From contig JBOEGF010000014.1 in NCBI GenBank assembly GCA_050633305.1, forward strand, positions 1-64,000: a stretch of 64,000 bases of DNA, in the 5' to 3' direction. Of this stretch, positions 22,574 through 41,601 are shown piece after piece (position 1 is the stretch's first letter; each line of letters opens with the position of its first letter). The translations under genes and the position numbers were made by a program. Source of the stretch: Nannocystales bacterium (lineage in GTDB: Bacteria; Myxococcota_A; Polyangia; Nannocystales; Nannocystaceae). Below the pieces are notes generated by a model. The model was not told where the DNA came from and did no database searches. It saw only the letters and a program-made list of their open reading frames with translations.

Positions 22574-22615
22574 AATCGCGATCTCTCGCGTCTCGATGAG
22601 TCCTCTCAGGCCTGA

Positions 22616-23870: not shown

Positions 23871-24082
23871 CACACGCCTCCCTTCGTCCGGATCGGTCTG
23901 TCGCAGACGGGACACTCGCGGTGCCTCGACTCTGCGAGAACCAGGACTCCGCAGGTGCAGCGCCGCGCGTCGAAGACGGCAGACCCGCCGAGTCCGTCGA
24001 GGGCTTGGCGCCCGGAGTTTGTCTCAATGACCAGGCGGGCTCGGGTGGCGTCGCGCAGCTCGAGCCGATTGAGCGGTGCCAT
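23870..24082 (-). CDS. Small Zn-ribbon protein
   Basis: CTC...CPVC; coupled to next gene. Confidence 0.5.
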   Translation of the reverse strand: MAPLNRLELRDATRARLVIETNSGRQALDGLGGSAVFDARRCTCGVLVLAESRHRECPVCDRPIRTKGGV

Positions 24083-24084
24083 GG

Positions 24085-24987: not shown

Positions 24988-25550
24988 GGGGTCACCTCCG
25001 GGAAGAGATCGCGGAACATGCCGAGGAAGCGAGATGCTGCCTCCTGTGATGACCAGCAATGCGGCGTCCATTCGCGGTCTGGAAAGCCGGTGAGCGGAGG
25101 GGACTCGTCTGGCAGGCCGGGCTCTCGGAGTCTCGGTGGAGGCTCGTGGAGCGAGGCGGCCTCCTGGTGAAACAGCACGCGGTCTGTGGCCTTGACGGCT
25201 GGATGTATGCCCCTGGGCAGACCGAATCTGGCCCTCACCGCGACCTCGACGACACCCTCAAGCTTTCGGTATCCCGGGAGGAGCCGCTTTAGAGGGCTTG
25301 GGAGATCGATCATGTAGGCCTCGTGGGAGTCGTGCATGAGTCCCTCTCTCGCGAGAGCACGGCCGCCGGGGAGCAGAAGCGTTGCGCAGTGCACCGAGTG
25401 TTCCGCGACGCTGTAGAACCGAGAACAGTGCCCAGCGAAGCGACACAGAAGCCCCAGGGAGTGGGCGATGTCGCGGATGTCGATCTGTTCGGGCTTCGGG
25501 TCTTCGTAGTCGAAGGCGAGCCCGGATCGCGTTTGGAGCCAGGCGGTCAT
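24984..25550 (-). CDS. HD-domain phosphohydrolase (YfbR-like nucleotidase)
   Basis: DIAHSL...CRFAGH...YSVAEHS...LMHDSHEAY.IDLPSPLK. Confidence 0.88.
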   Translation of the reverse strand: MTAWLQTRSGLAFDYEDPKPEQIDIRDIAHSLGLLCRFAGHCSRFYSVAEHSVHCATLLLPGGRALAREGLMHDSHEAYMIDLPSPLKRLLPGYRKLEGVVEVAVRARFGLPRGIHPAVKATDRVLFHQEAASLHEPPPRLREPGLPDESPPLTGFPDREWTPHCWSSQEAASRFLGMFRDLFPEVTP

Positions 25551-26740: not shown

Positions 26741-26748
26741 GCTACTAA

Positions 26749-27330
26749 CTAGTTGGAATCGTTGGACTTTACGGCGCTAATCGCGCATTGGGACACCGGC
26801 GCAGGTTTGGCGACGACGAAGACTGCGGCCATGCACTGTGAGCACCGCATGACGGCCCTGTCGGCGAAGACGAAGCACCGAAGTCCCGCGACGGGATGAC
26901 GGCGACAACCGACTTCGACGCAGCGCTCGACGTGGTCCGGGTCCGGGCAAGGGCACACCATCGGTGGCGACACCCACGAGTTCGGACCCTTCGGAACGCT
27001 CTCGTCGTTCTCGAGCGCCCTCACGAGACCGCTTGGGCTGTTGGGCGTCTTGAGTCCGGATTCCTCAGCCCACAGCCTGAAGCTACTCACGGTGTGGTGC
27101 CCCCTGAGGATCACGACCGCGCCGTCCGTATCTTCCATGCTGCGGCCCAGGACGAGCATCGAAACCGCGTCCGTCTCGGCGTTGGCAATGTCGACCATGG
27201 AGCTGAGCTGCCCCTTGAGCCCGTAGCCTTCTGATTCGATCTTGGGGAGTTGAGAGGTGTTGTCGGGTTTGGTGTCCCGGTTGCTTCCGGTGGCGACACG
27301 CGTGGCGATCGGCTTGTCGTTCGTTTTCAC
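26749..27330 (-). CDS. Hypothetical protein with C-terminal Cys cluster
   Basis: GTG start overlapping upstream stop; GGAGG RBS. Confidence 0.6.
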   Translation of the reverse strand: MKTNDKPIATRVATGSNRDTKPDNTSQLPKIESEGYGLKGQLSSMVDIANAETDAVSMLVLGRSMEDTDGAVVILRGHHTVSSFRLWAEESGLKTPNSPSGLVRALENDESVPKGPNSWVSPPMVCPCPDPDHVERCVEVGCRRHPVAGLRCFVFADRAVMRCSQCMAAVFVVAKPAPVSQCAISAVKSNDSN

Positions 27331-27620
27331 AGCAGGCCTCCCCCGTGTTCCCGGTCCCAATCCGCGGCCCGTTGTTCAGCGCTTCTAAGGGCTTCGGCGA
27401 CAGCGTCAACAACGGCGTCCGTCACGTGCTTCGCGGACGGCTCGTCGTCGACGAGCACGCTGACTGCCCGAGTGATCAAGTCGACCCGCCTGGAGTGCCC
27501 GACGAGCGAGAGGGCCGCCTGTATCTCGTCGCGGCAACCCCCTGCGGAGAAGCCGGTGTCCGTGGCCGAAAAGATGCTCACAGACCCGTTGTCGTGAGTG
27601 GTGATGGTTGTGCTCTTCAT
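27327..27620 (-). CDS. Hypothetical protein
   Basis: 97 aa, coupled at both ends. Confidence 0.6.
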   Translation of the reverse strand: MKSTTITTHDNGSVSIFSATDTGFSAGGCRDEIQAALSLVGHSRRVDLITRAVSVLVDDEPSAKHVTDAVVDAVAEALRSAEQRAADWDREHGGGLL

Positions 27621-28036
27621 CGTTTGTTCTCGGTTGTCGTGGAGTGGAGGTGGTGCCAGCACGTGGAGCGCCGGTTGTTCTCGCCGCGGGTTACCGGTTC
27701 GAGGTGCGCCGGGTTCACGCAGAGGCGGTTCCGGCAGCGGTGGTCGAGCTCGCGTCGCTTCCCGCGAAGTGGCCGGCCGTTTCGGATCGCGAGCTCGTAG
27801 ACGACGAGGTGAGCCTGACGGTTGGAGCCGTTGGACCAGACCGAGCCATAGCCGCGCGACGTGACGGCGGCGGTCCACATCCAGCACCGCGTTCCCTCGA
27901 AGCGCGGGCCGTTCGCCACGATCTTGACTCGAATGCGCGGAGGGAGCCGCCCCAGCGCCCGGGAGTCCTGGCGCGGCTCAAGCATCGCGATGCGGTGCAG
28001 GTCGACCGATACGCGGGGTGACTTGCTTCTAGGCAT
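27617..28036 (-). CDS. HNH endonuclease
   Basis: CWMWT...GYG...AHLVVYE...LDHRCRNRLCVNPAHLEPVTRGEN. Confidence 0.9.
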   Translation of the reverse strand: MPRSKSPRVSVDLHRIAMLEPRQDSRALGRLPPRIRVKIVANGPRFEGTRCWMWTAAVTSRGYGSVWSNGSNRQAHLVVYELAIRNGRPLRGKRRELDHRCRNRLCVNPAHLEPVTRGENNRRSTCWHHLHSTTTENKR

Positions 28037-28736
28037 GCCCCACCACCTTCCCGAGCCCGAAGGACTCGTCTCTCCTGCGGATGAGACGAGCAACCTTTTG
28101 GACAGCTCCCTTGGGAAGCGCGGGCCACGACTTGGGGAGCCGGCGCGCTGGCAAGGCCTGCGAGAGTGCGTGGCGGGCGAGATGTCGGTATGCCGCCTCC
28201 GGAGTGGCGAAGGTGCAGTCGCCGACTGTCCAAAAGACCGTCGGGCGGATGGCGGGCCCACGAGCAGCTCGGGCCGCTTGCGAGTCGGAGCCGACGAGCC
28301 ATTGTCGATCGATCTCCTGCTGCCGCCGATCGGACTCCTGCTGCTCGCGTGTGCTCTCGGCCTTGGCCGCCTTCTTCTCTTCGACGTGGGCGTCAACGAG
28401 TCGTTGGAGCCCTTCGAGAAAAGGGTGACGTGTCCCGGACCCGGCGTCCTTCGGAGCCTCGTACATCGCGATGGCCTGGGAGAGTAGGTGGCCCCGGACA
28501 AGTCCCTTGTGGAGCGGATCGTCGTGTTGAAGTGCTCCCGGATGCCGCTTCGCGATGAAGCCGTGGACCGCACCGCGTGCGACTCGCCCGACCTCGTGGA
28601 GCTCCGCGACTGCCGGGTCGTCGTTCGGGTCAGCGTTTGTCGGGTAGCGGTTCGCGAGCCACGCAACGAAGGCCACGGCGTCAGGGTTCGCGTCGAGCAC
28701 GTCCTTGACCGTTTGGGGGATGTCGGACGCCTTCAC
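28029..28736 (-). CDS. Hypothetical protein
   Basis: 235 aa coupled ORF. Confidence 0.65.
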   Translation of the reverse strand: MKASDIPQTVKDVLDANPDAVAFVAWLANRYPTNADPNDDPAVAELHEVGRVARGAVHGFIAKRHPGALQHDDPLHKGLVRGHLLSQAIAMYEAPKDAGSGTRHPFLEGLQRLVDAHVEEKKAAKAESTREQQESDRRQQEIDRQWLVGSDSQAARAARGPAIRPTVFWTVGDCTFATPEAAYRHLARHALSQALPARRLPKSWPALPKGAVQKVARLIRRRDESFGLGKVVGHA

Positions 28737-29287
28737 GACCCTTCTCCTCCGGACGACGACTCGAGGAGCCCGGCATGCTCGTCGGTGAGCAGTTCGATAA
28801 GTCGGTCGGCCGCGACTTCATCGAGACCGATCCGCGGGTTCGTTTGGACGAAGCGATGCCGGACGAAGGGCATGTCCGGGTCGTCGTCGACGACGGCCCA
28901 GCACGGCGGGGCTTCTGCCTGAGACGCGAGCCAGGCGGCGATCTCAAGCCCGCGAGGCTCTCCCTTGAGGTCGGGTGTCGCGCCGATGAACGACGGCCCG
29001 TCGTACCCGAAGCGCTTCCGCATGAGTTGCTCCGCTCGGTTGTGGTCGACGACGCCCACACCGCCGGCGCCGAGGATGAGCCGCCACATGCTGCTCAGCA
29101 CGATTTCGCAGCCCGTGGTCTCCACGACGCGATGGAGCTGGTCTAGGGACTCTCGCGCCTTCTCCATCCTGCGATCGCTTGCGGGAGGCAGGAGTACGCC
29201 GTCCACGTCGAGAAAGAGGACCGGTGCCCGGCGCGGTGGCGCGGAATGGCTAGAGCCGCCGTCGCCGGTGTGGACGGTCCGGCTCAC
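28733..29287 (-). CDS. HAD-family protein (Swiss Army Knife RNA repair-like HAD domain)
   Basis: FLDVDGVL, IVLSSMWR, RGLEIAAWL, WAVVDDD. Confidence 0.85.
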   Translation of the reverse strand: MSRTVHTGDGGSSHSAPPRRAPVLFLDVDGVLLPPASDRRMEKARESLDQLHRVVETTGCEIVLSSMWRLILGAGGVGVVDHNRAEQLMRKRFGYDGPSFIGATPDLKGEPRGLEIAAWLASQAEAPPCWAVVDDDPDMPFVRHRFVQTNPRIGLDEVAADRLIELLTDEHAGLLESSSGGEGS

Positions 29288-30522
29288 TGTGCAGCCGCCT
29301 CTCGCTCGCTGGTCTCCAGCTCGAGGCACTGGTCGGGCGAGAGCGGGCGGACAGAGGACTCTCCTCGCGGTGCCATGCGGTTGCCGGCATCGATTGCCTC
29401 GCTCCTGGTCTCGTATGGCCCGACCAGGCCCTCGTCCGGGTACTCGGTGAGGTAGGCCGCGAACCCTCCCTGGGACCATGTGGTGTCGCAGACGAAGGCC
29501 TCGACCTTGAGGAGCTGCGGTAGTTGCTCGGAAAGCATCGTCTCGTCGACGACCGCCATCTCGTCGTCCCACACTGCCCACGTCTCTTCGGGGACATTGG
29601 CCCCCGGCAGGACGAGCGCCGAGACGGCCTCCCGGATGGAGTCGCCGAGCGTCTCGGTCAGAGTCGGTTGGAGCTCGGTGACGGAGACTCGACGACAGCG
29701 ACGAATACGAGCCGTCTCAGGAACCGGAGAGTCCTCTTCCGACCGGATGTCGTTGAGCAGCTCGAGGGCGCTGGATTCACTCTGGCCCGCGATGTAGTAG
29801 CGGCTCTCCGAGTCCGCGACTCCGGTGTCGACACACCACAGGTCGAACTTGGCCTGCGCGCCATCGGCTGCCCCTGCCGGCGGGCACTTGCCCTGGGACA
29901 TGAGCCTCGCGACCTTGTCTCCGTAGCTCCGGAGTGCGACCGCTTCGCCGTCGAAGACCTCGGAGTACTTGTGCTGTTCGATCTCCACGAGCCGGTCCTT
30001 GATGATGTTCATGAGGGCGAGCGCCTCGTTCTCTTCGGGCCCGGGAAAGTGGCTCCCGGGGCTACGGGGCTCGATGGCCTCGATCCACCCCTCGGGACCG
30101 AACTCGCCGATCTGTTCGAAGGTGAAGCCGCCTTTGCGGGCTACGTCCTCGGCCGAGCGAGGACTGTCGTGGTGCTTCGCCCATGCGGCGTGGACCTCGA
30201 GGTGGAGGCTTTCGGGGATCTGCCGGACCAGGGGGAAGTCGTAGCCGTCGGCGCGGTCCTGCTCCGATAGGCGGACCGGGGCGTAGGCCTCGATCTTGGC
30301 GATGTTGCCGGTCGTGGGACCAGGCTCGACGGGCGCCCCCCAGCTGTGAATCTCGTCCCACGTCAGCGGGAGCGCGCGGTCGATCGCGTACAGGTCGCAG
30401 ACTCCTTCGCCTCGGCGGTGGACGTAGAGGATCTCGGCGCGTTGGTGTCGCTTCTCGCGTCGCTGGGTCGTGGCCCAGTGGTAGCCTTCTTCGGGCAGGT
30501 TCTCGGGAGCTGGGGTGTCCAT
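29284..30522 (-). CDS. Hypothetical multi-domain protein
   Basis: 412 aa acidic ORF preceded by the 34-bp repeated element. Confidence 0.7.
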   Translation of the reverse strand: MDTPAPENLPEEGYHWATTQRREKRHQRAEILYVHRRGEGVCDLYAIDRALPLTWDEIHSWGAPVEPGPTTGNIAKIEAYAPVRLSEQDRADGYDFPLVRQIPESLHLEVHAAWAKHHDSPRSAEDVARKGGFTFEQIGEFGPEGWIEAIEPRSPGSHFPGPEENEALALMNIIKDRLVEIEQHKYSEVFDGEAVALRSYGDKVARLMSQGKCPPAGAADGAQAKFDLWCVDTGVADSESRYYIAGQSESSALELLNDIRSEEDSPVPETARIRRCRRVSVTELQPTLTETLGDSIREAVSALVLPGANVPEETWAVWDDEMAVVDETMLSEQLPQLLKVEAFVCDTTWSQGGFAAYLTEYPDEGLVGPYETRSEAIDAGNRMAPRGESSVRPLSPDQCLELETSEREAAAQ

Positions 30523-30556
30523 ACGACCCCCGCCCCGTCGGCCGAACCGTACGGGG
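30523..30556 (-). promoter_or_regulatory. 34-bp element, copy 2, abutting the start codon
   Basis: 31/34 identical to 22540-22573. Confidence 0.7.
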
Positions 30557-30585
30557 TTACGCGTCAGCGGGTTGCTGCGCGAGAG

Positions 30586-30990
30586 TCAGGTTGTCCGGAA
30601 CCGCTCGGCCGTATTGGCCGAAGCGAGGTCCAGTTGGAAGCCGCCCGGCTCCGGAGAACCGCGGGCGCTTTCCTGGGTCTCGGCGTCGCGCTCGAGGGCC
30701 TTGTTCCTCTCGATGAGGCGGTTGAGCCGTCGGCTCTCGTTGTCCACCGACCTCTTGGTCCGCAGCAGGATCTTGCGTTGCTCCTCGACCTCTTTGTGGA
30801 GGTGTGCGAGTTGCCCCCGGGTCCGGGCGAGGAAGCCCTCTTGCTTCTCGTTCCTCTCGGCCTCGCGGAGAAGGACTTCGAATGCGTCGAAGACGAAACC
30901 GCATGTCGAGCAGTGCACGGAGCGCTCCTCGGCGTCGAGGATGAACCGCGGGTGTTGGCAAGGCGTGCCTTCGACCTTGAGCGGGTTCAT
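30586..30990 (-). CDS. Zn-ribbon/coiled-coil protein
   Basis: CQH...CSTC followed by a coiled coil. Confidence 0.6.
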   Translation of the reverse strand: MNPLKVEGTPCQHPRFILDAEERSVHCSTCGFVFDAFEVLLREAERNEKQEGFLARTRGQLAHLHKEVEEQRKILLRTKRSVDNESRRLNRLIERNKALERDAETQESARGSPEPGGFQLDLASANTAERFRTT

Positions 30991-31172
30991 GAGGACTCAT
31001 CCTCCGGCGTGAAGGTGAACTCCCCGGATGCGGCCATGCGGGCTCGCGCTAGGAGGTGGCGTTGGCGAGCTCGGCGAACCATGCCGGCGATCCGCACATC
31101 GGACGTACCGGCAGGGATCTGGATACGACGCCCGGCGTACCAGTTGAGTTGGTCGTGAAGGCTGTCGAACAT
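30987..31172 (-). CDS. Small hypothetical protein
   Basis: 61 aa, coupled at both ends. Confidence 0.5.
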   Translation of the reverse strand: MFDSLHDQLNWYAGRRIQIPAGTSDVRIAGMVRRARQRHLLARARMAASGEFTFTPEDESS

Positions 31173-31705
31173 CACGCCGCACCTCCGAAGAGTGAGAGCT
31201 GGCTGCACGGGGCCTCACCGGCCAACATGACGCGTCCACGCACGGGGTCGGGGTCCTCAGCCAGGTCTGCATCGACAGCGAGAGCCGGGCGGACAGGCGC
31301 AGTCTCAACGGCCCGCGGTACCTTCCACCACGAATCGGAGACGACGTTGTCCTGGCGGTCGAGCTCGACCCGTCGCCCGCCTTCGAGAAACAGCACGACG
31401 TGCCACTTCCCGACGTTGGCCCACGACTTGATCGGGAAGTCTTCTCCGTCGATGTGGAAGGCGGTCCGGCCTCGGCCGAATCGCTTCGCATGCCACGCCC
31501 GAGCCTCCGTCAGACCCATCTCCGATGTGGAGAGCCAGCCCCAGCAATACTGGGCGATCGCGTCCCAGCACCAGTGGACCATCCGGAGCCCATGCCGACC
31601 CCGCACCTCGTAGAGGGGCATCCGCTCGCCGCGGTCTATGGCGGTGACGGTCTCTCCGCATACCAGGGCTGTGGTCCCTGCCGGCGGTGGGACTGGGCGA
31701 CTCAT
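31172..31705 (-). CDS. Hypothetical protein
   Basis: 177 aa Trp-rich coupled ORF. Confidence 0.6.
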   Translation of the reverse strand: MSRPVPPPAGTTALVCGETVTAIDRGERMPLYEVRGRHGLRMVHWCWDAIAQYCWGWLSTSEMGLTEARAWHAKRFGRGRTAFHIDGEDFPIKSWANVGKWHVVLFLEGGRRVELDRQDNVVSDSWWKVPRAVETAPVRPALAVDADLAEDPDPVRGRVMLAGEAPCSQLSLFGGAA

Positions 31706-32067
31706 CGAGCCTCCGGGTTGTCGAGGTGCCGAAACTCAATGCGGGTCACGGTGTCGGTGGGCTTGCCGCCGAACAGTCGGAAGAACTCGCAGGGGCTCAT
31801 CCCTGGGAAGCCCTCACGGGCAAGGTCCGAGGCATCAATGAGGCCCAGGGCTTCGCGTCGAATGCTAACGATCTCGATCGGGTGGAGGACTTTCTGTCGC
31901 TCCCCCTTGGCGAGCCCCATACCCTTCTCGATCGCCAACACGATGTCGCCCGGGCGAACTCGCGGTTGATCCGCTTCTCGGTCCCACCAGCCGAAGCGTC
32001 GCGTGACGGTCTTGGTTCGGCCGCGCATCTGCGGGATCGTCATGGAGAACGCCATGCGCTTAGTCAT
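31702..32067 (-). CDS. ASCH-domain protein
   Basis: RTKTVTRR.GW...RPGD...IEIVSIRRE.L..I...DLAREGF...VTRIEF. Confidence 0.8.
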   Translation of the reverse strand: MTKRMAFSMTIPQMRGRTKTVTRRFGWWDREADQPRVRPGDIVLAIEKGMGLAKGERQKVLHPIEIVSIRREALGLIDASDLAREGFPGMSPCEFFRLFGGKPTDTVTRIEFRHLDNPEAR

Positions 32068-32344
32068 CGGTGGCTCCCTTCATGGCGTCGCGGAACTCTT
32101 CGAGAGCGCGATCCTTCGGCTCGACCGAAAGAGTCGCTCCCGGTTCGTGCTTCCGAAGGTCGTCGAGCTCGACGGGACGCCCGTAGTCCATCGAGACGGA
32201 GAGGACGAGCCCATTGGAGCTCCGGACGACGAAGACAGGTTTGGCCCCCTCCCCGGGGACAAGGCAGGCGTGGCATGGGGGTCGGAAGTAGAGGACCCGG
32301 TCTCCCTCAACGGGGCGCCCACAGGAGTGGCAGCGAAGCGTCAT
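32060..32344 (-). CDS. Small Zn-finger protein
   Basis: CHSC...CHAC. Confidence 0.55.
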   Translation of the reverse strand: MTLRCHSCGRPVEGDRVLYFRPPCHACLVPGEGAKPVFVVRSSNGLVLSVSMDYGRPVELDDLRKHEPGATLSVEPKDRALEEFRDAMKGATDD

Positions 32345-32976
32345 CGTGAACCCTCGTTCCCGAAGAGGGCGTCGGACAGGTGCAGCGTCGCGGGGTGTTT
32401 CTCTAGACTGCTCAGGGGCTGTTCCGGGGTCTCCCCGGACACCATGCCCCGCGACGTTGCTGGGCTCGGGCGTTCCACCCGCTCTCCGCCGGGCTCCCGA
32501 CCGACGGTGGAGGGCGTCTCACCCTCCTGGAAGTCACACACCGTTTGCGGGGTCGATTCGACTTCTAGGGGCACTCCCCACAAAGGCGGGCCCTGGCGCA
32601 CATGCTCGCCTCCCCCGCTCGGGTTCGTCTCCGTGTCCGACCTGCCAAACCCATGACCAGCGATGCCGGTCTCTTGGCGCGGGTGCTCGGTTGCCCGGCG
32701 ACATTCGCCGGTCCCTCCACTCGCTTTCAGGCTCGGAGCACGTTCGTTGCCGTTCTCCTCTTTCTGTTCGGGGCATTTTGTTGCGTGGAGTTCTTCCACG
32801 GCTTGCTTCGCGTGCTTGAGGAGGCGCGCTTCTCCGAGCGTGGGACAGACCTCTCGCGGAGCCCGATACGACCAACGCCAGGCGGAGGCGCTCAGGCGTA
32901 CGAGGCGGGCGACCTTGCGCTCTTCGAAGAATCCGCCGTAGTGGCCTGTCTTCTTGTCGCGCTTCCAGACGATCAT
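32341..32976 (-). CDS. Hypothetical protein
   Basis: Starts MIVWKRDKK with ATGA coupling; low-complexity C-terminal half. Confidence 0.55.
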   Translation of the reverse strand: MIVWKRDKKTGHYGGFFEERKVARLVRLSASAWRWSYRAPREVCPTLGEARLLKHAKQAVEELHATKCPEQKEENGNERAPSLKASGGTGECRRATEHPRQETGIAGHGFGRSDTETNPSGGGEHVRQGPPLWGVPLEVESTPQTVCDFQEGETPSTVGREPGGERVERPSPATSRGMVSGETPEQPLSSLEKHPATLHLSDALFGNEGSR

Positions 32977-33437
32977 GCCGCACCTCCGGATTTGGTCGAC
33001 CGACTCAGGGGCGCTCGCGCACCCTCGAACGCTCCGGCAAGCTCCAGCGCCTGGGTTGTCTCCGACGCTTCGAGCTTGGTCTCGATGGCGGCGAGGTTGC
33101 TGGCAGCAAGTATCCGGAGTCGCAATGACGCGTTCTCGAACGGCGTGGAGGCGATCGCCCTCGGGCCGTTCGTCCATGTATCGATGAGGAACGCCCAGCC
33201 CTTCTCGCGTCGCCGGAACTCGAGCGTGAGGTGTTTGCTCCCATCCTCGCGGACAGCGATGGTCACCCGACCCGGAACTGCGAAGCGCTGGGCCCAGAGT
33301 TCGGCGGTGCGTTCGAAGATCGCGTTGAGTCCATCGGCGAGAATCGCGACCTCGCGCCGCGTCGCTGGGGTCCCGGTCCGGACCTGCTCTGAGACGCAGA
33401 TCGCTCGGTCGATGGCTTCCTGGGTCGCGTCGTTCAT
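32973..33437 (-). CDS. Hypothetical protein
   Basis: 154 aa coupled ORF. Confidence 0.6.
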   Translation of the reverse strand: MNDATQEAIDRAICVSEQVRTGTPATRREVAILADGLNAIFERTAELWAQRFAVPGRVTIAVREDGSKHLTLEFRRREKGWAFLIDTWTNGPRAIASTPFENASLRLRILAASNLAAIETKLEASETTQALELAGAFEGARAPLSRSTKSGGAA

Positions 33438-34456
33438 GATGACCTCTTTCTGTTCGCGATCAGCATCGTGGCCTCTTCAGCCGAGTGGCCTTGTTTGTCG
33501 AAGTAGCTGCGAGTCGTCGCCGGGTTGGAGTGTCCGAGGAGGTCGCAGGCCTGCTTGAGGTTCCCGTTGCTTTCTTCGAAGACGACGGTCGCGGCCGTGT
33601 GCCGGAAACCGTGGGGGCCGGAGAGTCCATGCACGTACTTGGTCCGCTTGTAGACCGAGTCGGGGTGAAGGCTCCCACCCTTCCCACGTCCCGATGTCCC
33701 GCAGAACACGGTGGCGTCGCTGGCGATGTGGCCGAGATGCAGGACCCTGAGCTGTTGCCAGCGCTGCAGGGCGGACACGGCCTGGGGCGAGAGTGGGAAT
33801 CGGCGCGTTGAGCCGCCCTTCACGATGGCTCTTGCGTGTGGACGCGTGGCGTCGAGATGCGTCTCGCTCCAGAGCATCGTGACCAGCGACTCCCGCCGCA
33901 TCGCTGTGTGATAGAGGGTCACGAACATCGCGTAGTCGCGGGCGTGGATCAGCGTCTTGGACTTGTCGTCATCGCCGTCCGCGAGTCTTTCGAGTTCGTC
34001 GATCTTCGCTTCGAGGTCTTGGACATCGGGACCCTCGGCGCGGTCGTAGGGTCGATAGGAGGGCCCGCGGACGGCGGTGAGGTCCCAGGTGAGTCCGAAG
34101 CGCCGCAGCGTGGCTGTGAGGCTGCGGAGGGAAGCGATCCGCCGGGCGATCGATGTGGGCTGAAGCTCGCGCTCCACCATCTCGGTCCACCAGTCGGCGA
34201 TGGAAGACTCGGCCACCAGCTGGCCGCCTTCGATGAGCACCAGAGTGCCGTCGACGGGGTCGGAGATGACCTCGCCCCGGACAAAGGTGGCGAACAGCCG
34301 CAGGTCGCTGAGTCGGGCGCGCACAGTGTGCTCGGACTTGCCGGAGAGCCACGCCTTGATGGCGTTCTGCAGACTCTCGCGTACGGCGTCGGCGTCGGCG
34401 TAAGTGACCGCACTGGCGGCGGGTGCCATGACCGCGAGCGTGTTCTCGGCGCTCAT
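33434..34456 (-). CDS. Second tyrosine recombinase (XerC/D-like)
   Basis: TAMRRES (R), VKGG (K), PHGFRH (HxxR), LLGHS (H), TTRSY (Y); N-terminal SAM-like domain. Confidence 0.9.
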   Translation of the reverse strand: MSAENTLAVMAPAASAVTYADADAVRESLQNAIKAWLSGKSEHTVRARLSDLRLFATFVRGEVISDPVDGTLVLIEGGQLVAESSIADWWTEMVERELQPTSIARRIASLRSLTATLRRFGLTWDLTAVRGPSYRPYDRAEGPDVQDLEAKIDELERLADGDDDKSKTLIHARDYAMFVTLYHTAMRRESLVTMLWSETHLDATRPHARAIVKGGSTRRFPLSPQAVSALQRWQQLRVLHLGHIASDATVFCGTSGRGKGGSLHPDSVYKRTKYVHGLSGPHGFRHTAATVVFEESNGNLKQACDLLGHSNPATTRSYFDKQGHSAEEATMLIANRKRSS

Positions 34457-34959
34457 GTCGAGGCTCCTGTCTCGCTGTCGTTGTAGAGGGCCTCTGGGTT
34501 TTCCCGGAGTAGGCAGCCGTGACACTCGCCGCACATCTGCTCGGAGAACACCTCACAGAGGCGCTCATCATCGAATCGTCGATCCGCGGCGTCCTTCCTC
34601 AGGCGCTCCACCTCTCTCTGCAGGCGCTGGTTGTGGAGCGCATAGGCCTCCGCGACTCCGACTGACGATTCCCTCATCCCGGGAAGCGTCCCTTCTCCCC
34701 GAAACGCCCGAGCCGCTTCGGAGTCGGATCCGGTTGCCCAGATGCACATGAGCGCCTTCTCCTGCCAGCTGGCGTGGCGCTTTGATTCGGAGACACTGAT
34801 GAAAAAGACCCGGACTCGCTCCTCCGCGCCCTCCTCGGGAAACGAGCTTGGGTGCACCCTCGCTTCATCCGCGGTCAACTCTGGGCCCCAGGCTGCGCAG
34901 TCCTCCGATTCCGGGTCGAAGCCGTACCAGCCTTGCGCCCATGACTCGTATGCGCTCAC
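34453..34959 (-). CDS. Hypothetical protein
   Basis: 168 aa; CGECHGC near the C-terminus. Confidence 0.55.
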   Translation of the reverse strand: MSAYESWAQGWYGFDPESEDCAAWGPELTADEARVHPSSFPEEGAEERVRVFFISVSESKRHASWQEKALMCIWATGSDSEAARAFRGEGTLPGMRESSVGVAEAYALHNQRLQREVERLRKDAADRRFDDERLCEVFSEQMCGECHGCLLRENPEALYNDSETGAST

Positions 34960-35780
34960 GCGTCCACCGTCCTGCACTCTGCGTAGAACTTGCTGCGCCA
35001 CGCGGCGGGGATCGGCAGCCCGCCGATCTGATAGTCGTCGCCCGGGACAGGGACATTGCACACCGCGGCCACCGACTCTGCGATCTTCCACTGCGCGGAG
35101 CCGCAACAGATCTGTCGGTTCGGGTTGCCGTCCTGGTCGCGTCCCGCCACCCGATGCGGAGCGATCATGAAGGGCTCGATGCCCCGCCGCCGCAGCTCTC
35201 CGATCTTGTCCGTGAGCCGGCTGGATGTCGCCTGCGCCCAGGCGGCGCTCATCCTCGAGCGGCCGAGCTGCTCGGGCTTGAAGAACCGGCCGCTGCCGGC
35301 AACACCTTCGAAGTTGCCCGCAAACTCGAAGTTGATCGAGTGGTACGGCTCCCGGTCAAATCGGTTGGAGGCGATGAGGTGGGTCTCGTCGGGGTGGACG
35401 ATGTAGACCGCGCCGTCTCCCCAGACCTCCTGCGCGGTCACGAGCTTCGCTCTGCGACGAAGTTGTGCCGGAGTCCGGACGACGCCCATCTGGTGGATGA
35501 CCAAGACGACCCGACGCTTCGAGAGATCAACAGGCGGGTACGCGGTCCGCTTGATGCGACCTGGGAGTCCCAGTGCCCGACGGCGCTTGCTCGGCCGATA
35601 CCGGCTGCGCTTCGCTTGGTCCCGAACGTCGACGAGGTGATAGTCGACTCCTTCACCGGCCGGGTCGGTCTCGGCCTGCTCGAGCTCGGCGGCGTCGAGC
35701 TTGCCGATCGCGTCTTGCCACCGCGTCGAGGCGTCGGAGATCGCGGGCCAGAGCGCGGACAATGTGGAGAACGGGTTCAT
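34956..35780 (-). CDS. N-acetylmuramoyl-L-alanine amidase-like protein (Amidase_2/T7-lysozyme type)
   Basis: LVIHQMG, SINFEFAGNF, IAPHR and RQICCG correspond to the His/His/Cys zinc-ligand pattern. Confidence 0.65.
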   Translation of the reverse strand: MNPFSTLSALWPAISDASTRWQDAIGKLDAAELEQAETDPAGEGVDYHLVDVRDQAKRSRYRPSKRRRALGLPGRIKRTAYPPVDLSKRRVVLVIHQMGVVRTPAQLRRRAKLVTAQEVWGDGAVYIVHPDETHLIASNRFDREPYHSINFEFAGNFEGVAGSGRFFKPEQLGRSRMSAAWAQATSSRLTDKIGELRRRGIEPFMIAPHRVAGRDQDGNPNRQICCGSAQWKIAESVAAVCNVPVPGDDYQIGGLPIPAAWRSKFYAECRTVDA

Positions 35781-36568
35781 AGCGAGAGAGCCTCCTGTCG
35801 GGCTTTCGGGGTGGTGGTGAGAGGGAGAGACCGCTGTTCGCGTGTGGACTCAAGCCGCCGGCGAGCGGGGCCAAACATGTCGGGGTCGAGCTCCCAGCCG
35901 AGCCACCGGCGACCAGTACGGATCGCCGCGACGCCGGAGCTCGCCGACCCGGCGAAGGGGTCGAGGATCAAGTCGCCCGGGTCGGTGAACTGCTCGATCA
36001 TCCGCTCGAGCAACGGAATCGGCTTCTGCGTCTGGTGGATACGCTTCGTTCCGTCCCTCGCGGGGTAGCTCCAGAACGCCGGCAGTCCGCCCCCGTTCCA
36101 CTTCATTCGACCAGGGGGGTGACCGATCACGACACTCTCCGTCGCTTGGCCCGGGCGGTCTCCCGTGAGCTGCGGGCAGCAGCCCGGTTTGTGCCAAGTA
36201 CCGGTTCGGATGGGGCGGAGCGATTCTCGCTTGCCGTTCTTGCCAGGGATCACCCGCGCGAACTCCAAGGCGTCGTTCCACTCACGAACGGTTTCAGCGT
36301 CGGTGAAGAGCAACACCCAGCGGCGCACCACCTGGGCCGTCTTGATTGCCGTCATCGCTCGGTCGAAGGTGTCGAACGGTCGGAACCCGATCTGGACGTT
36401 CGAGCGGCCGTTGTCGACCTTCGATGTCCGATGGTTCGAGTGCACGTGCTTGCAGTACGGCGTGTCGGTGAAGACGTGGTCGCACTCGGGCCATGCGTCG
36501 AGAAGCGAGTTGCCGAGACGAAGCTCCCAGCCGGGTCCCGTCGCGGTGTCGAGGATCGCGGAGGTCAT
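35777..36568 (-). CDS. DNA amino-methyltransferase (N4C/N6A, beta class)
   Basis: FTDTPY (variant motif IV), HQTQKPIPL, ILDPFAGSAS (motif I), GWELD. Confidence 0.88.
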   Translation of the reverse strand: MTSAILDTATGPGWELRLGNSLLDAWPECDHVFTDTPYCKHVHSNHRTSKVDNGRSNVQIGFRPFDTFDRAMTAIKTAQVVRRWVLLFTDAETVREWNDALEFARVIPGKNGKRESLRPIRTGTWHKPGCCPQLTGDRPGQATESVVIGHPPGRMKWNGGGLPAFWSYPARDGTKRIHQTQKPIPLLERMIEQFTDPGDLILDPFAGSASSGVAAIRTGRRWLGWELDPDMFGPARRRLESTREQRSLPLTTTPKARQEALSL

Positions 36569-36939
36569 GAGAGCACCCCTCCGGTCGGCCAGTTGCACGG
36601 AGGCTCCGGGTCCCGCCCGGTGCCCGAGCAATGCGCGCAGGCGTTCGGGGTCTTCCCGCCGCACTCGAGGCACACGGCATTCCCGGTGTCGTCGACAGCG
36701 ACGGAGTCGAGGTCCCCAAGTTTGCCGGCGGCGAGGAGGGCCAGCTCGAGCGTGGGGGCCGCGGCGTAGCAGCATCGATCGCTACCGAAGACTTCAACCT
36801 CGTAGCGCTCCGACTTTGCGTCCCAGTTGATCTCGACCTTTCGCGAAGTCGCGCCGGGGTGGACGGATTGGCGGATGGCATCGATCGCACGCTCCAGGAG
36901 CGGCTGCGGTTCGGCGCGGGTGGGGTTGCTGCCGCTCAC
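36565..36939 (-). CDS. Hypothetical Zn-finger protein
   Basis: CLECGG...CAHCSGTG. Confidence 0.55.
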   Translation of the reverse strand: MSGSNPTRAEPQPLLERAIDAIRQSVHPGATSRKVEINWDAKSERYEVEVFGSDRCCYAAAPTLELALLAAGKLGDLDSVAVDDTGNAVCLECGGKTPNACAHCSGTGRDPEPPCNWPTGGVLS

Positions 36940-37196
36940 AGGTCCGCACCGCCGTTTTTCTCCGTCAGAAGCTCGACAACTTCGAAAAACACGAACGTTC
37001 CAGCGGCAAGAAACGCGAGACAAAACCCGGCGAATGCCGCTGTTGCCAGCGTGGCAACGATGCTCATCACCAGGACACTGGCTGCGTTCTCTAGCCCTGA
37101 CGATGCGGCGTTGAACCCGAACAGGGTGACGTTGACCCCGAGCGCAACCCCGAGCACGAAGGCCTCGATTTTCCGTCTGTTGGTGGTCTCGGTCAT
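36936..37196 (-). CDS. Small membrane protein
   Basis: 86 aa with two hydrophobic segments. Confidence 0.6.
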   Translation of the reverse strand: MTETTNRRKIEAFVLGVALGVNVTLFGFNAASSGLENAASVLVMSIVATLATAAFAGFCLAFLAAGTFVFFEVVELLTEKNGGADL

Positions 37197-38158
37197 GTCG
37201 TTACCCCGCGGGCCTGGGCCTGAAGGTGGGCCCGTCGACGACCGTCTTCGGCGTCCTCGTCGCGCGCAGTCTTCCGGGGGTCGTTCACGCGGATTTTGTC
37301 GAGGAAGCGCTGGAGCATTCCGTCGACCTGTTCCCGGCGTCCGGGTGCCTCATCTCGGATCCGAATGAGGTCCTCGTCCTTGCATCCGAGTGACTCCTGG
37401 AGGCTCTTGAGCACGAAGCTGCGGATGTCTCCGGATTCGGTGGCGCGCAGGAGCTTGAGTGCCCGAGACGCGTCCTCGTAGCGGTTCTTGGTGTAGTCGC
37501 ATCCGCCTGAGACGCGGTAGCTCCCTTGCTCCCGTGCGCGCTTGCAGGACACCCACGACCCGCCGTCATTGACTCTGTCGACCAGGCGGGACTCGTCCGG
37601 CTTCACGCCGTCGTAGACCTGGGCGAAACGGGACTCGGGGAGGTTCGTCGTGACGACGGTGGGGCGCTCCGCGGCGTGTCGGGCGGAGAGGATCGCGCTG
37701 ATCCGTGCGACGGCCATGCCCGATGTGGTGCCAGGTCCACCGATCTCGTCGATGACCAGGTGTTGCGCCTCGAGCATGGACTGGACGCGCTTGGCCGCAG
37801 ATGCCCATTCGTCGAGCGCGAGGAGTGGGGCGTGACACCAGGCCGCCGTGGTGGTGAGCGCGTACCGGGCCGCGGCGGTCGTCTTCCCGAGTCCCACGGA
37901 GCTCGACAGGATGAGCATCCCGGTCCGCTGTTCCTTCGCCCAGCCGATCGCGGCGTCGAGCGCGTCGCACGACTCGAGATCGTAGGCCCATGCCGCAGCC
38001 AGTTCGCGGCGGGGGGCGCCAGCATTGGCAAGGGCCTCGAACCTCGAGACGCGTCCCTCCCAGCTGTCGCGAGGTGACAGACCCTTGGGTCCGGGGGTGT
38101 CTCCGAACGTGACCAGGGCGCTTGCGCGGTCTTCAGGGGACAGTGTTTCGGCGGCCAT
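37193..38158 (-). CDS. DnaC/IstB-like AAA+ ATPase (helicase loader)
   Basis: Walker A SSVGLGKT, Walker B LVIDEIG, VVTTN, SRLVDR; directly downstream of the initiator. Confidence 0.85.
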   Translation of the reverse strand: MAAETLSPEDRASALVTFGDTPGPKGLSPRDSWEGRVSRFEALANAGAPRRELAAAWAYDLESCDALDAAIGWAKEQRTGMLILSSSVGLGKTTAAARYALTTTAAWCHAPLLALDEWASAAKRVQSMLEAQHLVIDEIGGPGTTSGMAVARISAILSARHAAERPTVVTTNLPESRFAQVYDGVKPDESRLVDRVNDGGSWVSCKRAREQGSYRVSGGCDYTKNRYEDASRALKLLRATESGDIRSFVLKSLQESLGCKDEDLIRIRDEAPGRREQVDGMLQRFLDKIRVNDPRKTARDEDAEDGRRRAHLQAQARGVTT

Positions 38159-39219
38159 CAGAGCGTCTCCTCCGCGTTGGGGTCGATGGGTTTGTCGGGG
38201 AGGGGGATCCCTCGGTTGGTGCAGTTCTCGGGTTTCGAGAAGTCGCCAGGTGCGTAGCTGGGGCTGCCACCACCGCTGCCGCTGCCACCACCGCCGTTCG
38301 ATCCTCGTCGCGGGGCGGGAATCGAGCTCGCGTGCTCCCACTTCTCCCAGTTCTTGGCCCAGTGCAGATATTGGAGCGTCAGGTGCTGAATCCAGAACTC
38401 GTCGCGTGAGGCCGCCTCGGCGAGGTGACCGATCCGGAGCTTCCAGTCCTCGAACGATGCGCCTTCTCGCTTCGTCGCCTTCTCGACCCACCTGCGTTGG
38501 GACTTACTGTCAGTTCGGAACCCGACGGCGTTCTCGATGAGGCGCGCGCGGTGTTCGTTGATCAGGGCGATGACGCGGTCGACGAGTGTTGCGTCGACCG
38601 ACGACCTCGACTTCGAGCCAGACCGAGAGCGCGGCCCAGTCGCGGAGTCGCGACTTGGCTTATTCTCTCTCTCTTGATCTCGATCTAATTCTTCATCTAA
38701 TTCTCTATCTTGGTTCCCCCAAATCGGAATCTGGTGGAGATCAGGTCCTGATCTTTTTTCGACAACCCCGTCATTGCTCGGGTTCTTGGAAATCAGGTGA
38801 GGGTACCGGTCACAGATCAGGCGCCTGATCTGATTAACCAACTTGACTACGACTTGATCTCGAATCTGATTCCAAAACTTGACCTGATCTTCGGTCCCCG
38901 GCGGCTTCTGTTCGTCGGCCATTTCGACCCACCACAGGACCTCGAACTCGCGGAACCAGACGACATGGCCCGCGCTGGCGAGGCGGGAAATCGACTCTTC
39001 GATGTCGCCGGCTGTCACAGTCACCGTCCGCCCGTCGCCCGATGCGATCCGCGCCATGGATGCGAGGGAGCGCTCGAGCAAGCCGAGTTGGTTCTCGCAT
39101 TGGCACTGCAGTCGGAGCCCGTGCTCTCGATCGGAGAACCAGTGGGTGCTCCGGTGATTCAGCACATCGACGCGAGTCTTGGTCCAGAACACGTCTGCGC
39201 TTCCAGACTTCTTAGGCAC
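38158..39219 (-). CDS. Phage replication initiator protein (lambda O/DnaD-like organisation)
   Basis: Upstream of the DnaC-like gene; central charged linker encoded by AT-rich repetitive DNA. Confidence 0.65.
   Translation of the reverse strand: MPKKSGSADVFWTKTRVDVLNHRSTHWFSDREHGLRLQCQCENQLGLLERSLASMARIASGDGRTVTVTAGDIEESISRLASAGHVVWFREFEVLWWVEMADEQKPPGTEDQVKFWNQIRDQVVVKLVNQIRRLICDRYPHLISKNPSNDGVVEKRSGPDLHQIPIWGNQDRELDEELDRDQERENKPSRDSATGPRSRSGSKSRSSVDATLVDRVIALINEHRARLIENAVGFRTDSKSQRRWVEKATKREGASFEDWKLRIGHLAEAASRDEFWIQHLTLQYLHWAKNWEKWEHASSIPAPRRGSNGGGGSGSGGGSPSYAPGDFSKPENCTNRGIPLPDKPIDPNAEETL
38660..38890. promoter_or_regulatory. Candidate replication origin inside the initiator gene
   Basis: AT-rich; AGATCAGG-T-CCTGATCT (38738-38754), CAGATCAGGCGCCTGATCTG (38813-38832), extra half-site 38883-38890. 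Confidence 0.6.
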
Positions 39220-39634
39220 GAGACGCCCCCTCCGAGGCCTTCACGCCAGCCTGAGTGGCCTGGTAGACCTTGGCCCGCCGCCCCGAGGGAGCTTTGCGGT
39301 AGTTGCCCGCGTGCTCGATGAAGCGGAGCGTCTCGAGTTCCCGGATCCGTGGGCGGATCGTGTTGCCGGGGACGCCGAGGCGCTGCTCGAGCTGTTGAGC
39401 GGTGGCATCCTGCGCGACGATGGATGCCAGGACCTGCCGCTGGACCTTGCCCGCGAGTCCGGTCTTGGCGACGTGGGACGCCGCCTCCCGGGACGTGTCG
39501 TGGTCAGAGGCAGGGGTCCATGGCGACCTGTTCCGCGACCTTCGGCGGGCCGGCGGTCGCGATGCCGGCCCAGGCGAAGGGTCGAGCGCGAGAGCCATCT
39601 GCTGGTCCTCGGGAGGTTTGGGGGACTGGGTCAA
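39212..39634 (-). CDS. Winged-helix DNA-binding protein
   Basis: ATAQQLEQRLGVPGNTIRPRIRELETLRFIE...SGRRAKVY. Confidence 0.75.
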   Translation of the reverse strand: MTQSPKPPEDQQMALALDPSPGPASRPPARRRSRNRSPWTPASDHDTSREAASHVAKTGLAGKVQRQVLASIVAQDATAQQLEQRLGVPGNTIRPRIRELETLRFIEHAGNYRKAPSGRRAKVYQATQAGVKASEGASRA

Positions 39635-39915
39635 CGTGCGCCCCCCATGGTGAGACGGTCGAGCGTGCCGGGGGCCCAGGACCGCTGAGGTGCCGTGTGG
39701 CGAGGGGGACGCCGATCGTGGGCCCTAGACCGCTTCGCGGCGGTCTGACGGGCGTGCTGGAGAGCCTCAAGGGCGGTGCCGAACGTTCCGGCAGAGATCA
39801 CGCTGCCATCGGTCAACTTCAGCCGGTACCGGACTCGACCCCGGGACCCTCGAACTCGGACCCACTTCACGCCGAAGCGGGTCCACTTTGAGTGGTGGAG
39901 GTCGCTACCAAACAT
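39631..39915 (-). CDS. Small basic protein
   Basis: 94 aa between the integrase and wHTH genes, coupled. Confidence 0.5.
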   Translation of the reverse strand: MFGSDLHHSKWTRFGVKWVRVRGSRGRVRYRLKLTDGSVISAGTFGTALEALQHARQTAAKRSRAHDRRPPRHTAPQRSWAPGTLDRLTMGGAR

Positions 39916-41095
39916 TGGACACCCCCCGGAGTTCCTCTCCGTCCGGCGTTCTCTCGTAGGCTCCCTGTCGGAGTTCGACGAAGAGGCCGCGACGCACGAG
40001 AGCCTTGGCTGCCTGAGCCTGGCCTGCGCCACGCGGAAAAACCTCCGAGCCTGGACAACACAGCAAGCTGAACTGCGCGGGCGTCAGTTGGTCCAGCGTC
40101 ACCGACTTGGGCTCCGGGATCCGGAGCTCGAGCTGGTACTGGAGCGAGCCGAGGAGCAGCCGCTCGACGCGGGTCGCCACATCTTCCATCCGATCGTCGC
40201 CCAGGTGGGCGTAGCGAGCGGTCATGTGTTCGGTGGTGTGCCCAAGCGAGATACGAAGGGCCCCCATCTTCTCGCCGCTGTCGAGCGCGAGCGATGCCCA
40301 GGTTCTGCGGAGGTCATGCAGCCAAACATCGTTGAGCCCGACCGAGTCGGCGAGCTTTCGCCACGCGTGCGAGAGACTGGTCTGCTGCAGGTGGCTCTGA
40401 GTGCGTCCGGGGAAGAGGTGTTTGAAGCGGCCGCCGGACTGAGTGGCTTGGCTGCGACGGCGGCGGACGATCTCCTGCGCCCGAGGGCCGAGCCAGACCT
40501 TGCGATCCCCGGTCTTGGCGTCTCGTAGGAAGATGTAGTCCCCCATCGGAGAGACCTCGCCGGCCACGAGGGTGACAACCTCGCCGGAGCGAAACGGGGT
40601 GGTCAGGGAGAGCCAGAGCGCGTCGACGGTGACCGCGTGCGCTCGAGGACGCTTCGAGTAGACCGACAATGCGGTCGCAATCCGAGAGAACTCCTCGTAG
40701 GTCAGGTATCGGTCCCGCTCCTGGGATCCACGCCTGAAGGCGAACGGCTTGGCGGCAGCGGCGTCCGGCCAGCCGTTCTGAGACGCCCAGGTCAGGAACG
40801 GGCTGAGAACAGTGCGTACGTTGTGGCGGCTCCCAACCGGGAATGAGTCGAGCCAGAGCTGGGAGTCCTCGGCGCAAAGGTCTGCCAGCGGCAGTTCGCC
40901 AATGGCGTCGGTAAACCGGCCGAGGTAGTAGGTGCGGTTCTCCTCGGTCTTAGGCTTGTTACGCCCAGCCTTGGCGGCGATGTACTCGTCGACCGCTTCG
41001 GCGATGGTCTCGGAGCGGGGCTCTGGGTTGGCGAGGGCGTGAAGCTCGAGGGCCTGCTTGGCGATGGCCGCCATCCTGGCGGTAGCGTCGGACAT
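39905..41095 (-). CDS. int: Tyrosine integrase
   Basis: PFRSGE (R), DAKTG (K), LHDLRR (HxxR), LGHT (H), TARY (Y); adjacent to the tRNA fragment. Confidence 0.93.
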   Translation of the reverse strand: MSDATARMAAIAKQALELHALANPEPRSETIAEAVDEYIAAKAGRNKPKTEENRTYYLGRFTDAIGELPLADLCAEDSQLWLDSFPVGSRHNVRTVLSPFLTWASQNGWPDAAAAKPFAFRRGSQERDRYLTYEEFSRIATALSVYSKRPRAHAVTVDALWLSLTTPFRSGEVVTLVAGEVSPMGDYIFLRDAKTGDRKVWLGPRAQEIVRRRRSQATQSGGRFKHLFPGRTQSHLQQTSLSHAWRKLADSVGLNDVWLHDLRRTWASLALDSGEKMGALRISLGHTTEHMTARYAHLGDDRMEDVATRVERLLLGSLQYQLELRIPEPKSVTLDQLTPAQFSLLCCPGSEVFPRGAGQAQAAKALVRRGLFVELRQGAYERTPDGEELRGVSNVW

Positions 41096-41243
41096 CCCCC
41101 GAGTTCGCCACGGACTGGCGTGAGGGGGAAGTCGGCGCTCGGTGTCACGGACACCTGTCTGCCGGGCCGGCGTGGGAGCGACGTTTTTCGCGCGCTCACC
41201 ACATGCGGCAATGTTCAGTTTTTTCGGAGGACCGCGCCTATCT

Positions 41244-41302
41244 CTCGTAGCTTTGAGAGCATCTGGTTCGAAGCCAGATGCTCTATCCAGCTGAGCTACG
41301 AG
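41244..41302. repeat. Extended inverted repeat at the att junction
   Basis: CTCGTAGCT (41244-52)/AGCTACGAG (41294-302) and AGAGCATCTGG (41256-66)/CCAGATGCTCT (41274-84) flank the 7-nt anticodon loop. Confidence 0.9.
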
Positions 41303-41305
41303 TGC
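41262..41305 (-). tRNA. tRNA-Arg(TCG), 5' half only (acceptor 5' strand, D-arm, anticodon arm; no T-arm or 3' acceptor strand)
   Basis: GCACTCG TA GCTC AGCTGGATA GAGC A TCTGG CT-TCG-AA CCAGA, then non-tRNA sequence with no GTTCRA T-arm. Confidence 0.88.
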
Positions 41306-41317
41306 AGAACGGCGGCC

Positions 41318-41346
41318 AGGTTGCCCAAGCGTCGGGGATCCGTCAA
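41318..41346 (-). promoter_or_regulatory. Sigma70-like promoter of the tRNA gene
   Basis: TTGACG-N17-CAACCT, ending 12 nt before the tRNA 5' end. Confidence 0.6.
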
Positions 41347-41601
41347 GTCGGAACCCTGGGCCTGGCGCAGCGGACGTTTTAGGCGCTCAGAAGGCGTGCA
41401 CGGGGCCTGGGCGATCGGCCCCGTTCGGTCTCGGTCGCCTTGATATGGGCCGACGGGCGGTTGTTCGGGGCGCTTGGGGAGGCCCAAGGCAAGGCTGTCG
41501 TGGGCTCGGGTTCCGCGCGACAGGGGTGTCGCGGAAAGGGGGTTGGTCGGGACGCTTCAAAGGCGAGTTTCGTTGGTACATGGATTGCACCATCCGCCGG
41601 C

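Follow-up and report, generated by a model that had tools for sequence, protein, structure and literature searches.

A tRNA-Arg(TCG) 5' half with a mirrored arm at the probable left junction of a phage-like element in a Nannocystales bacterium

In a 64,000-nt stretch of a Nannocystales genome (GCA_050633305.1, contig JBOEGF010000014.1, positions 1 to 64,000; the window in what follows), a tRNA-Arg(TCG) gene breaks off after its first 44 nt and runs, towards an integrase gene (int), into what looks like a reversed copy of its own 5' half. The locus raises the question of what has become of the tRNA and why the mirrored sequence is there. We consider it likely that the site is the left attachment junction (attL) of a temperate phage-like element of the type that integrates at the anticodon and carries a tRNA 5' fragment, by the mechanism proposed below. 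In this study, G000 denotes the genome that holds the window, G006 a second genome of the same genus, L017 a metagenome contig with a related element and L014 the locus of the closest integrase relative; G001, G003 and G004 are genomes with an intact, element-free copy of the tRNA.

The left junction

No tRNA gene was called by ARAGORN in the whole window, and an Rfam search returned tRNA matches only. The features of the junction are listed below in the order in which the minus strand is read.

41341..41346, minus: -35-like box TTGACG of the putative host tRNA promoter; same box and distance at the intact element-free tRNA in G001, G003 and G004
41318..41323, minus: -10-like box CAACCT of the putative host tRNA promoter, after a 17-bp spacer; conserved in G001, G003, G004 and L014
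41262..41305, minus: displaced 5' fragment, tRNA-Arg(TCG) positions 1-44, which is the 44-bp att identity block (attL); 100% identical to nt 1-44 of the intact tRNA (C16:177970-177927)
41274..41284, minus: left core arm, 11 bp, made up of the D-stem 3' strand and the anticodon-stem 5' strand
41267..41273, minus: anticodon loop, presumed 7-bp strand-exchange (overlap) region and centre of the dyad
41256..41266, minus: right core arm (P'), which mirrors the left arm perfectly over 11 bp; 11 of 11 positions, where the 3' side of the tRNA itself has 7 of 11
41244..41252, minus: outer 9-bp mirror of tRNA positions 4-12, exact match to 41302-41294; lineage-specific and probably a relic
41213..41223, minus: AAAA(A/T)CTGAAC motif in the P' arm, a candidate accessory or arm-type site; found in G000, G006, L017 and L016
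41142..41154, minus: short palindromic sequence ahead of int, GTGTC-CGT-GACAC; L016, L017 and L018 retain its core TGTCCGTGACA, which is degenerate in G006 and L014

On the minus strand, the 44-nt half (41305-41262) is followed by TGCTCT-CAA-AGCTACGAG, which takes the place of the variable loop and T-arm, just as a first-pass annotation of this DNA had described. That annotation had also seen an 11+9 bp dyad centred on the 7-nt loop and proposed the extended dyad as the core site of the integrase. The inner 11 bp (41284-41274 and 41266-41256, flanking the loop at 41273-41267) are a perfect inverted repeat and the role of a core site is supported for them. The outer 9-bp match is exact but asymmetrically placed, its two arms lying 9 nt and 3 nt from the inner arms, and it is absent in G006 and differently placed in L017, which tells against its belonging to the core. 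At a fixed place, the 6-mer TGCTCT was met at 5 of 20,000 random genome positions, and a match of at least 9 nt to tRNA positions 1-21 in 21 of 20,000 random 25-mers, so that chance is an improbable source of either arm; the fold of the junction has a z of -3.4, and none of 200 shuffles folded equally well. The 44-nt att identity stops 5 nt past the anticodon loop, as predicted from the stem dyad, and strand exchange is presumed to take place at the borders of the loop by analogy with known anticodon-site integrases.

About 45 bp around the -35-like box are nearly identical in G001 and in the host flank of the window, and the TTGACG and CAACCT boxes probably function as the host tRNA promoter; a consensus promoter scan scored neither this promoter nor the leader promoter of the element described below. 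The orientation of the host promoter towards int, also pointed out at first pass, was confirmed, and a consensus scan found no terminator between the two or after the hairpin, which lacks a U-tract.

The far end, the element and its integrase

The first-pass annotation had held that the tRNA is not restored and that the element either rebuilds it at its far end, with a 5' half and promoter of its own, or destroys it. The former statement is true of the window alone. An intact tRNA-Arg(TCG), with its first 44 nt identical to the half in the window, lies behind a new leader on another contig of G000 (C16, 177970-177896); the tRNA is thus rebuilt at the far end with the element's own 5' half and a promoter-like leader, and its destruction is ruled out by the intact copy. 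C16 continues for 6.1 kb past the tRNA and then ends, and the contig break inside the element is accounted for by an insertion sequence (IS) with which the window begins.

1..21, plus: insertion-sequence end, with target site CTAG; C16 also ends in this terminus and CTAG
1..41261, no strand: body of the phage-like element in the window; continues for about 6.1 kb on C16:177971-184088 and is collinear with the 44.5-kb element of G006

The genes that flank the IS in G000, at the end of C16 and at the start of the window's contig (C14), are adjacent genes in G006, and we infer from the IS ends and this synteny that the start of C14 joins the end of C16. The element then amounts to 41,261 + 6,118 bp and an IS (about 47 kb), within the Islander limit of 2-200 kb. 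In G006, two copies of the 44-mer lie 44,486 bp apart on a single contig, and the interval is collinear with the C16 tail plus C14:1-41261. The tRNA and the 5' fragment have the same orientation (minus of the joined C16-C14 order) with the fragment upstream, and in G006 both are found on one contig. A search of 30 genomes with the 44-mer pattern matched seven, G000 and G006 twice and the other five once, as intact tRNAs. The host genes of both flanks surround one intact tRNA in G004, which represents an empty site, and nearly the same sequence precedes the tRNA fragment in the window and the element-free tRNA in G001; therefore, attL, with the host promoter, lies in the window and attR on C16. 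Leader, 5' half, mirror and int are contiguous in L017, which represents a natural, unintegrated attP, and attB, attL, attR and natural attP are thereby all available from members of the family.

The 90-nt leader 5' of the restored tRNA has a part common to G000 and G006, TTGACAACCTGATA, with a TAGAGC box 17 nt after TTGACA. It contains two hairpins that differ in sequence (single-sequence folds), with AGG-N7-ATG in the gap between them, 42 nt before the tRNA. The TTGACA box and the leader are conserved in all three elements (G000, G006 and the natural attP L017), and the leader probably acts as the promoter of the restored tRNA.

Several further observations were made around the tRNA. Position 5 of the 5' half differs between the hosts G000 and G006, and the attL and attR copies agree within each genome; since a crossover in the loop would not exchange position 5, conversion or selection may keep the tRNA half of the element matched to its host. 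A second tRNA-Arg(TCG) is present on C47 of G000 together with a tRNA-Arg(GCG) call, and therefore the rebuilt tRNA may not be the sole UCG decoder; divergent extra-tRNA clusters were found at C47:18510-19107, C13:26362-26583 and C27:100925-101282. Past a strong terminator, 70-112 nt 3' of the restored tRNA (C16:177825-177784, L013), 42 nt show 88% identity to the int start of L014 with no int behind them, and this stretch is probably the relic of an earlier element of the conventional type at the same tRNA. Repeats of tRNA T-arm and D-arm pieces in permuted order occur at C18:128200-128800 (L002). The IS with CTAG target interrupts several contigs (window 1-21 and the ends of C37 and C72) and is also met at C2:327790-328460, where two IS ends bracket a stretch of about 600 bp without an obvious transposase. 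Two sequencing runs with small shares yielded only scattered pieces and tRNAs of other organisms, which have no bearing either way.

Pfam and PHROGs matches in the element comprised a DnaC-like loader, DNA methylases, HNH, repressor-like HTH, an M23 endolysin-like family and a second integrase. Terminase, portal and capsid families were found neither in 52 ORFs searched with PHROGs nor in 36 searched with Pfam, the ORFs being hand-picked and some probably in wrong frames, a result that does not amount to their absence. The element is likely to be a prophage. Where the virion module would be expected, a long plus-strand operon (window 119-19820) is 40-80% conserved with the element of G006; it gave no capsid, portal or terminase match (PHROGs, Pfam) and no Walker A motif in its conserved ORFs, and may belong to an unrecognised kind of myxobacterial virus. 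The second tyrosine recombinase lies at window 33434-34534 (58% in G006), and a toxin-antitoxin-like pair of PIN-like and DUF433/HTH genes, as well as a response-regulator gene, lies inside the element near attR (L001:14674-15766). Searches for further members of the family returned G006 only among 40 relatives, G006 and two distant integrases without a tRNA in their loci among 72 family genomes, one locus, that of G006 itself, in a GTDB scan, and remote integrases only in a phage collection; in IMG/VR, none was found by single protein or by the leader promoter pattern, and three distant ones by alignment.

39905..41095, minus: tyrosine integrase, 396 aa, PF00589; core-binding and catalytic domains and a C-terminal winged-helix-like domain

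The integrase was aligned with nine homologues (43-67% identity), which share the C-terminal extension and end at about the same position, the start position being common to seven of the nine; the source name of one of them (P0006) points to Nannocystaceae. An N-terminal arm-binding domain such as that of lambda-type heterobivalent integrases was not detected with Pfam, and the structure model (mean pLDDT 81.5, pTM 0.49) starts with one helix followed by the core-binding domain. Fold search matched residues 27-305 to tyrosine recombinases and residues 334-396 to MarR-like winged helices (Z about 8-9, rmsd 1.4-2.1, about 60 residues), the latter a short match that is not evidence of function. 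The winged-helix-like domain (window 39908-40120, residues about 330-396) is confined to the close clade and, judging from the model, may substitute for the arm-binding domain. Recombinases without an arm-binding domain, such as Cre and Xer, depend on long symmetric core arms. In L014, home of the nearest relative (67%), int follows an intact tRNA that has the same host promoter, as in the conventional layout, and there is no mirror at that junction. In a tree of 11 proteins, the 5'-type elements form a weakly supported cluster (85/88) that has L014 as its sister and leaves P0009 outside, which suggests one switch from 3'-half to 5'-half restoration.

The mirrored arm and competing explanations

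The inner mirror is kept at 11 of 11 positions in G000 and at 10 of 11 both in G006 and in the natural attP L017. The outer 9-bp arm of G000 has no equivalent in G006, and L017 retains another piece in a different place; these lineage remnants would derive from a single inverted copy of the 5' half that decayed in different ways. When 401 genomes of the phylum were searched with the mirror pattern, this site and one match that is not tRNA-like were recovered.

The IMG/VR collection was searched with a generic D-arm carrying a D-stem mirror at the symmetric position, so that the resulting set is selected by the pattern itself. A total of 42 loci were obtained, from which 33 that form one redundant tRNA-like family and three tRNA-array pseudogenes without an anticodon arm were left out. 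The other six are 5' halves of tRNAs (Met/Ile-CAT, Lys, Val and Arg) that break off at the anticodon loop, five of them adjoined by a Pfam integrase; a control with reversed 5-mers gave seven loci, none with an integrase. Two of these records are complete phages with a single D-arm match each, and therefore attP. The anticodon stem is unmirrored in five of the six cases while the D-stem mirror retains its exact spacing, which favours a protein half-site over an RNA hairpin, and position 12, which lies outside the search pattern, is symmetric in four. A scan that excluded exact mirrors by design returned at least 120 loci (full flanks for 80), with at least 11 distinct sites of a tRNA-Arg fragment plus integrase; among the sites listed, symmetry was found mainly at position 8 (8 of 11) and two had a mirror shifted by one base. 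Since many tRNA-Arg 5'-fragment sites do without it, the full mirror is not generally required, and it is a recurring minority solution. Since the inner 11-bp mirror is kept in all three junctions of the family and is met again next to integrases of unrelated phages, at other tRNAs, the best reading of it is that of a symmetric core arm for the integrase.

Two other arrangements were noticed among the viral contigs. In L094, a tRNA-Arg(CCT) half beside an integrase has a 13-bp perfect inverted repeat with an 8-nt spacer, a loxP-like geometry. At the ends of two contigs (L057:1-300 and L085:50-261), an intact tRNA-Arg is preceded, at a distance of only 130-210 nt, by the 5' half of a tRNA-Arg that shares its anticodon.

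According to the explanation that we favour, attP would be made up of a promoter and a structured leader, the 5' half of tRNA-Arg(TCG) and the anticodon loop, along with a right arm in mirror image of the left one. The integrase would bind the two 11-bp arms and exchange strands across the 7-nt loop. Promoters would be swapped on integration: at attR, the element's promoter would drive the rebuilt tRNA, and at attL, the promoter of the host tRNA would be left to face a dead 5' half and int; the geometry is read from the sequence and the expression is what it would predict. The mirror probably goes back to an inverted copy of the entire 5' half, which decayed beyond the bound 11 bp. It would exist because a right arm owned by the element is released from the form of a T-arm and can match the half-site that the integrase meets on the D-stem side. 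This explanation draws on the intact C16 tRNA with its identical 44 bp, the C16-C14 join through the IS and the presence of both ends on one contig in G006, on the leader conserved in G000, G006 and L017 together with an inner mirror of 11, 10 and 10 of 11, and on an integrase that, with no N-terminal arm-binding domain detected, resembles recombinases relying on long core arms. Against it stand the many tRNA-Arg 5'-fragment sites that have no mirror, the closest relative, L014, whose integrase works behind an intact tRNA without a mirror there, the selection of the viral mirror set by the pattern itself, the failure of both promoters to score in the consensus scan, and the inferential nature of the C14-C16 join.

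A second explanation, which we regard as possible but doubtful, accepts the same integration geometry and adds to it a split integrase like that of pTN3. It starts from the reading frame upstream of int.

41096..41386, minus: stop-free frame continuous with int over the junction and lacking a start codon at attL; from the ATG at 41095 it extends upstream for 97 codons, as far as a TGA at 41389-41387

The open frame across the junction had been reported at first pass and was borne out for these 97 codons, none of which is ATG, GTG or TTG at attL, and by itself it is weak evidence; the frame that begins at the element's leader ATG in attP says more. The distance from att to the int ATG downstream of it is 167-210 nt. 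In attP, the ribosome site and ATG of the leader would start a longer Int that reads through the tRNA half and the mirror. Integration would move promoter and start codon to attR and leave int with a weaker, hairpin-flanked internal start, the lowered Int would stabilise lysogeny, and the outer part of the mirror would have been shaped by the open frame. Consistent with this, AGG-N7-ATG-AC(A/T)-CT occurs 42 nt before the tRNA in all three leaders, within an unpaired gap flanked by two hairpins that are kept although their sequences differ. When attP was rebuilt in silico, the leader ATG was in frame into int, giving 480 aa in G000 and 487 aa in G006; these two share one ancestral leader-to-motif spacing, and therefore they are not independent cases. 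The distances from the conserved P'-arm motif to the int start (128, 152, 161 and 167 nt) are in a single phase and free of stops, the phase agreement having a chance of about 1 in 27. The homologue P0009 (43%) is annotated from an upstream Met-Thr and reads through the anticodon arm and 3' half of a tRNA-Arg(TCG), with 21 of 22 residues matching C16 (from the protein sequence alone), and IntpTN3 is described as having the same layout, internal in-frame start included (PMC8371274). However, in the only natural attP, L017, the leader frame is one base out of phase and stops after 43 codons. The extension of int shows no residue conservation and its codon usage is not coding-like (GC3 of 0.60-0.68 against 0.80-0.88, with negative codon scores in four of four); in the window, GC3 is 0.62 from the motif to the ATG and 0.88 in int. 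The spacers are also open in 31-55% of shuffles (31% for the core-to-ATG spacer of the window), and the internal int start, conserved in seven of nine homologues, lies ahead of all folded domains. Translation of an int extension from the leader ATG is thus something that we would put forward only tentatively. Equally conjectural is a broader scenario, in which a clade of bacterial integrases evolved a pTN3-like switch, apparently once and from a 3'-half ancestor, with attP placed in the 5' end of int, promoter and ribosome site ceded to the tRNA and a weak internal int start left behind, the mirrored arm being a long symmetric core and the arm-binding domain having been traded for a winged helix.

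It is also conceivable, though we think it unlikely, that the mirror was selected as RNA, so that the transcript from the host promoter would pair back onto the 5' half, keep processing and synthetases away from the half-tRNA and reduce read-through into int. In each of the three junctions of the family, the 5' half with the following 38 nt does fold to -30.6 to -33.9 kcal/mol, and the unequal spacing of the outer arm suits a bulged hairpin better than a DNA dyad. When the duplex energy of the outer arm was compared with that of shuffles, the tail of L017 paired with tRNA 1-21 better than most (31/1000, which is marginal), but the pairing of G000 (148/1000) and G006 (572/1000) was within the shuffles and the six viral cases were inconsistent (39-854/1000); outer-arm RNA pairing as a conserved trait is unsupported by this comparison. 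Moreover, five of the six viral cases break the anticodon stem with the D-stem mirror spacing exact, and no U-tract follows the hairpin here.

A one-off accident (inverted recombination, fold-back or misassembly) that destroyed this copy of the tRNA is very improbable, for although the loop holds the palindrome TTCGAA and hairpins can mislead assemblers, the same architecture is found with divergent flanks in G006 and the natural attP L017, and the far-end tRNA is intact and in direct orientation. Inverted integration via the palindrome was rejected, the far end being a normal direct-orientation tRNA without a mirrored 3' half, and misassembly at the hairpin, raised at first pass as a possible refutation, is unlikely given that two independent assemblies (G006 and L017) both contain the inner mirror.

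Relation to known systems

The integration had been called atypical in the first-pass annotation; the arrangement is rare but known, and it is not atypical in kind. What distinguishes the present case is the conserved mirrored core arm, the unusual architecture of the integrase and a possible leader-start switch. A literature search, with most subscription papers outside its coverage, found nothing direct on a mirrored arm or on a bacterial split int of this kind. With attB, attL, attR and a natural attP, and with a seemingly conventional sister on the same tRNA, the family is a compact test case for the switch from 3'-half to 5'-half restoration, and likewise for the question of which bases of a tRNA gene are read by an integrase, here apparently those on the D-stem side, 7-12 bp from the loop. 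The housekeeping tRNA-Arg(UCG) of the lysogen would depend on the promoter of the element.

In the Islander survey, 159 of 3919 islands carry a 5' tRNA fragment (Hudson, Lau and Williams, PMC4383910). As here, these islands have a tyrosine integrase within the interval, the tRNA and the 5' fragment in direct orientation with the fragment upstream, and a size near the 40-kb prophage peak (PMC4383910). So far as that paper's account of them extends, 5'-fragment islands are counted only, whereas the mirrored right arm, the leader and the start codon are features of the element described here.

Conventional 3'-fragment integration at the anticodon, with a lambda-like core (Williams 2002, as cited in PMC8371274), shares the 7-bp loop overlap with inverted arms. 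In that type, the 3' half comes from the element and the tRNA stays with the host promoter; in the present element, the assignment of both halves and promoters is the reverse, and the sister L014 is apparently conventional. The Mx8 and Mx9 integrases likewise belong to temperate myxobacterial elements, and attP of Mx8 lies in the 3' part of int and overlaps its frame, so that integration changes the C-terminus of Int (PMC6070905). Unlike in Mx8, the folded protein here lies downstream of att and keeps its C-terminus, which sets the element apart from the Mx8 type.

The closest model is the archaeal 'suicidal' integrase of the pTN3 type. Such integrases use the tRNA 5' half, the restored tRNA is expressed from the integrase promoter, and they are seldom met in bacteria (PMC8371274). 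In both systems att is a tRNA 5' half, the identity block being 41 bp in pTN3 (Cossu et al., PMC5495485) and 44 bp here, and the catalytic part of int is left behind the host tRNA promoter with an internal in-frame start. Unlike in pTN3, the host is a bacterium, the integrase matches only PF00589 and not PF16795 (Phage_integr_3), the domain of the archaeal SSV/pTN3 clade, and all folded domains lie downstream of att; a pTN3-type attP inside the int coding sequence is in frame in two of three cases here, is broken in the natural L017 and shows no coding bias. A 2021 review describes gene-disrupting integrases as exclusively archaeal (PMC8371274), and if the leader start is real, the present element would provide a bacterial counterpart of these split integrases.
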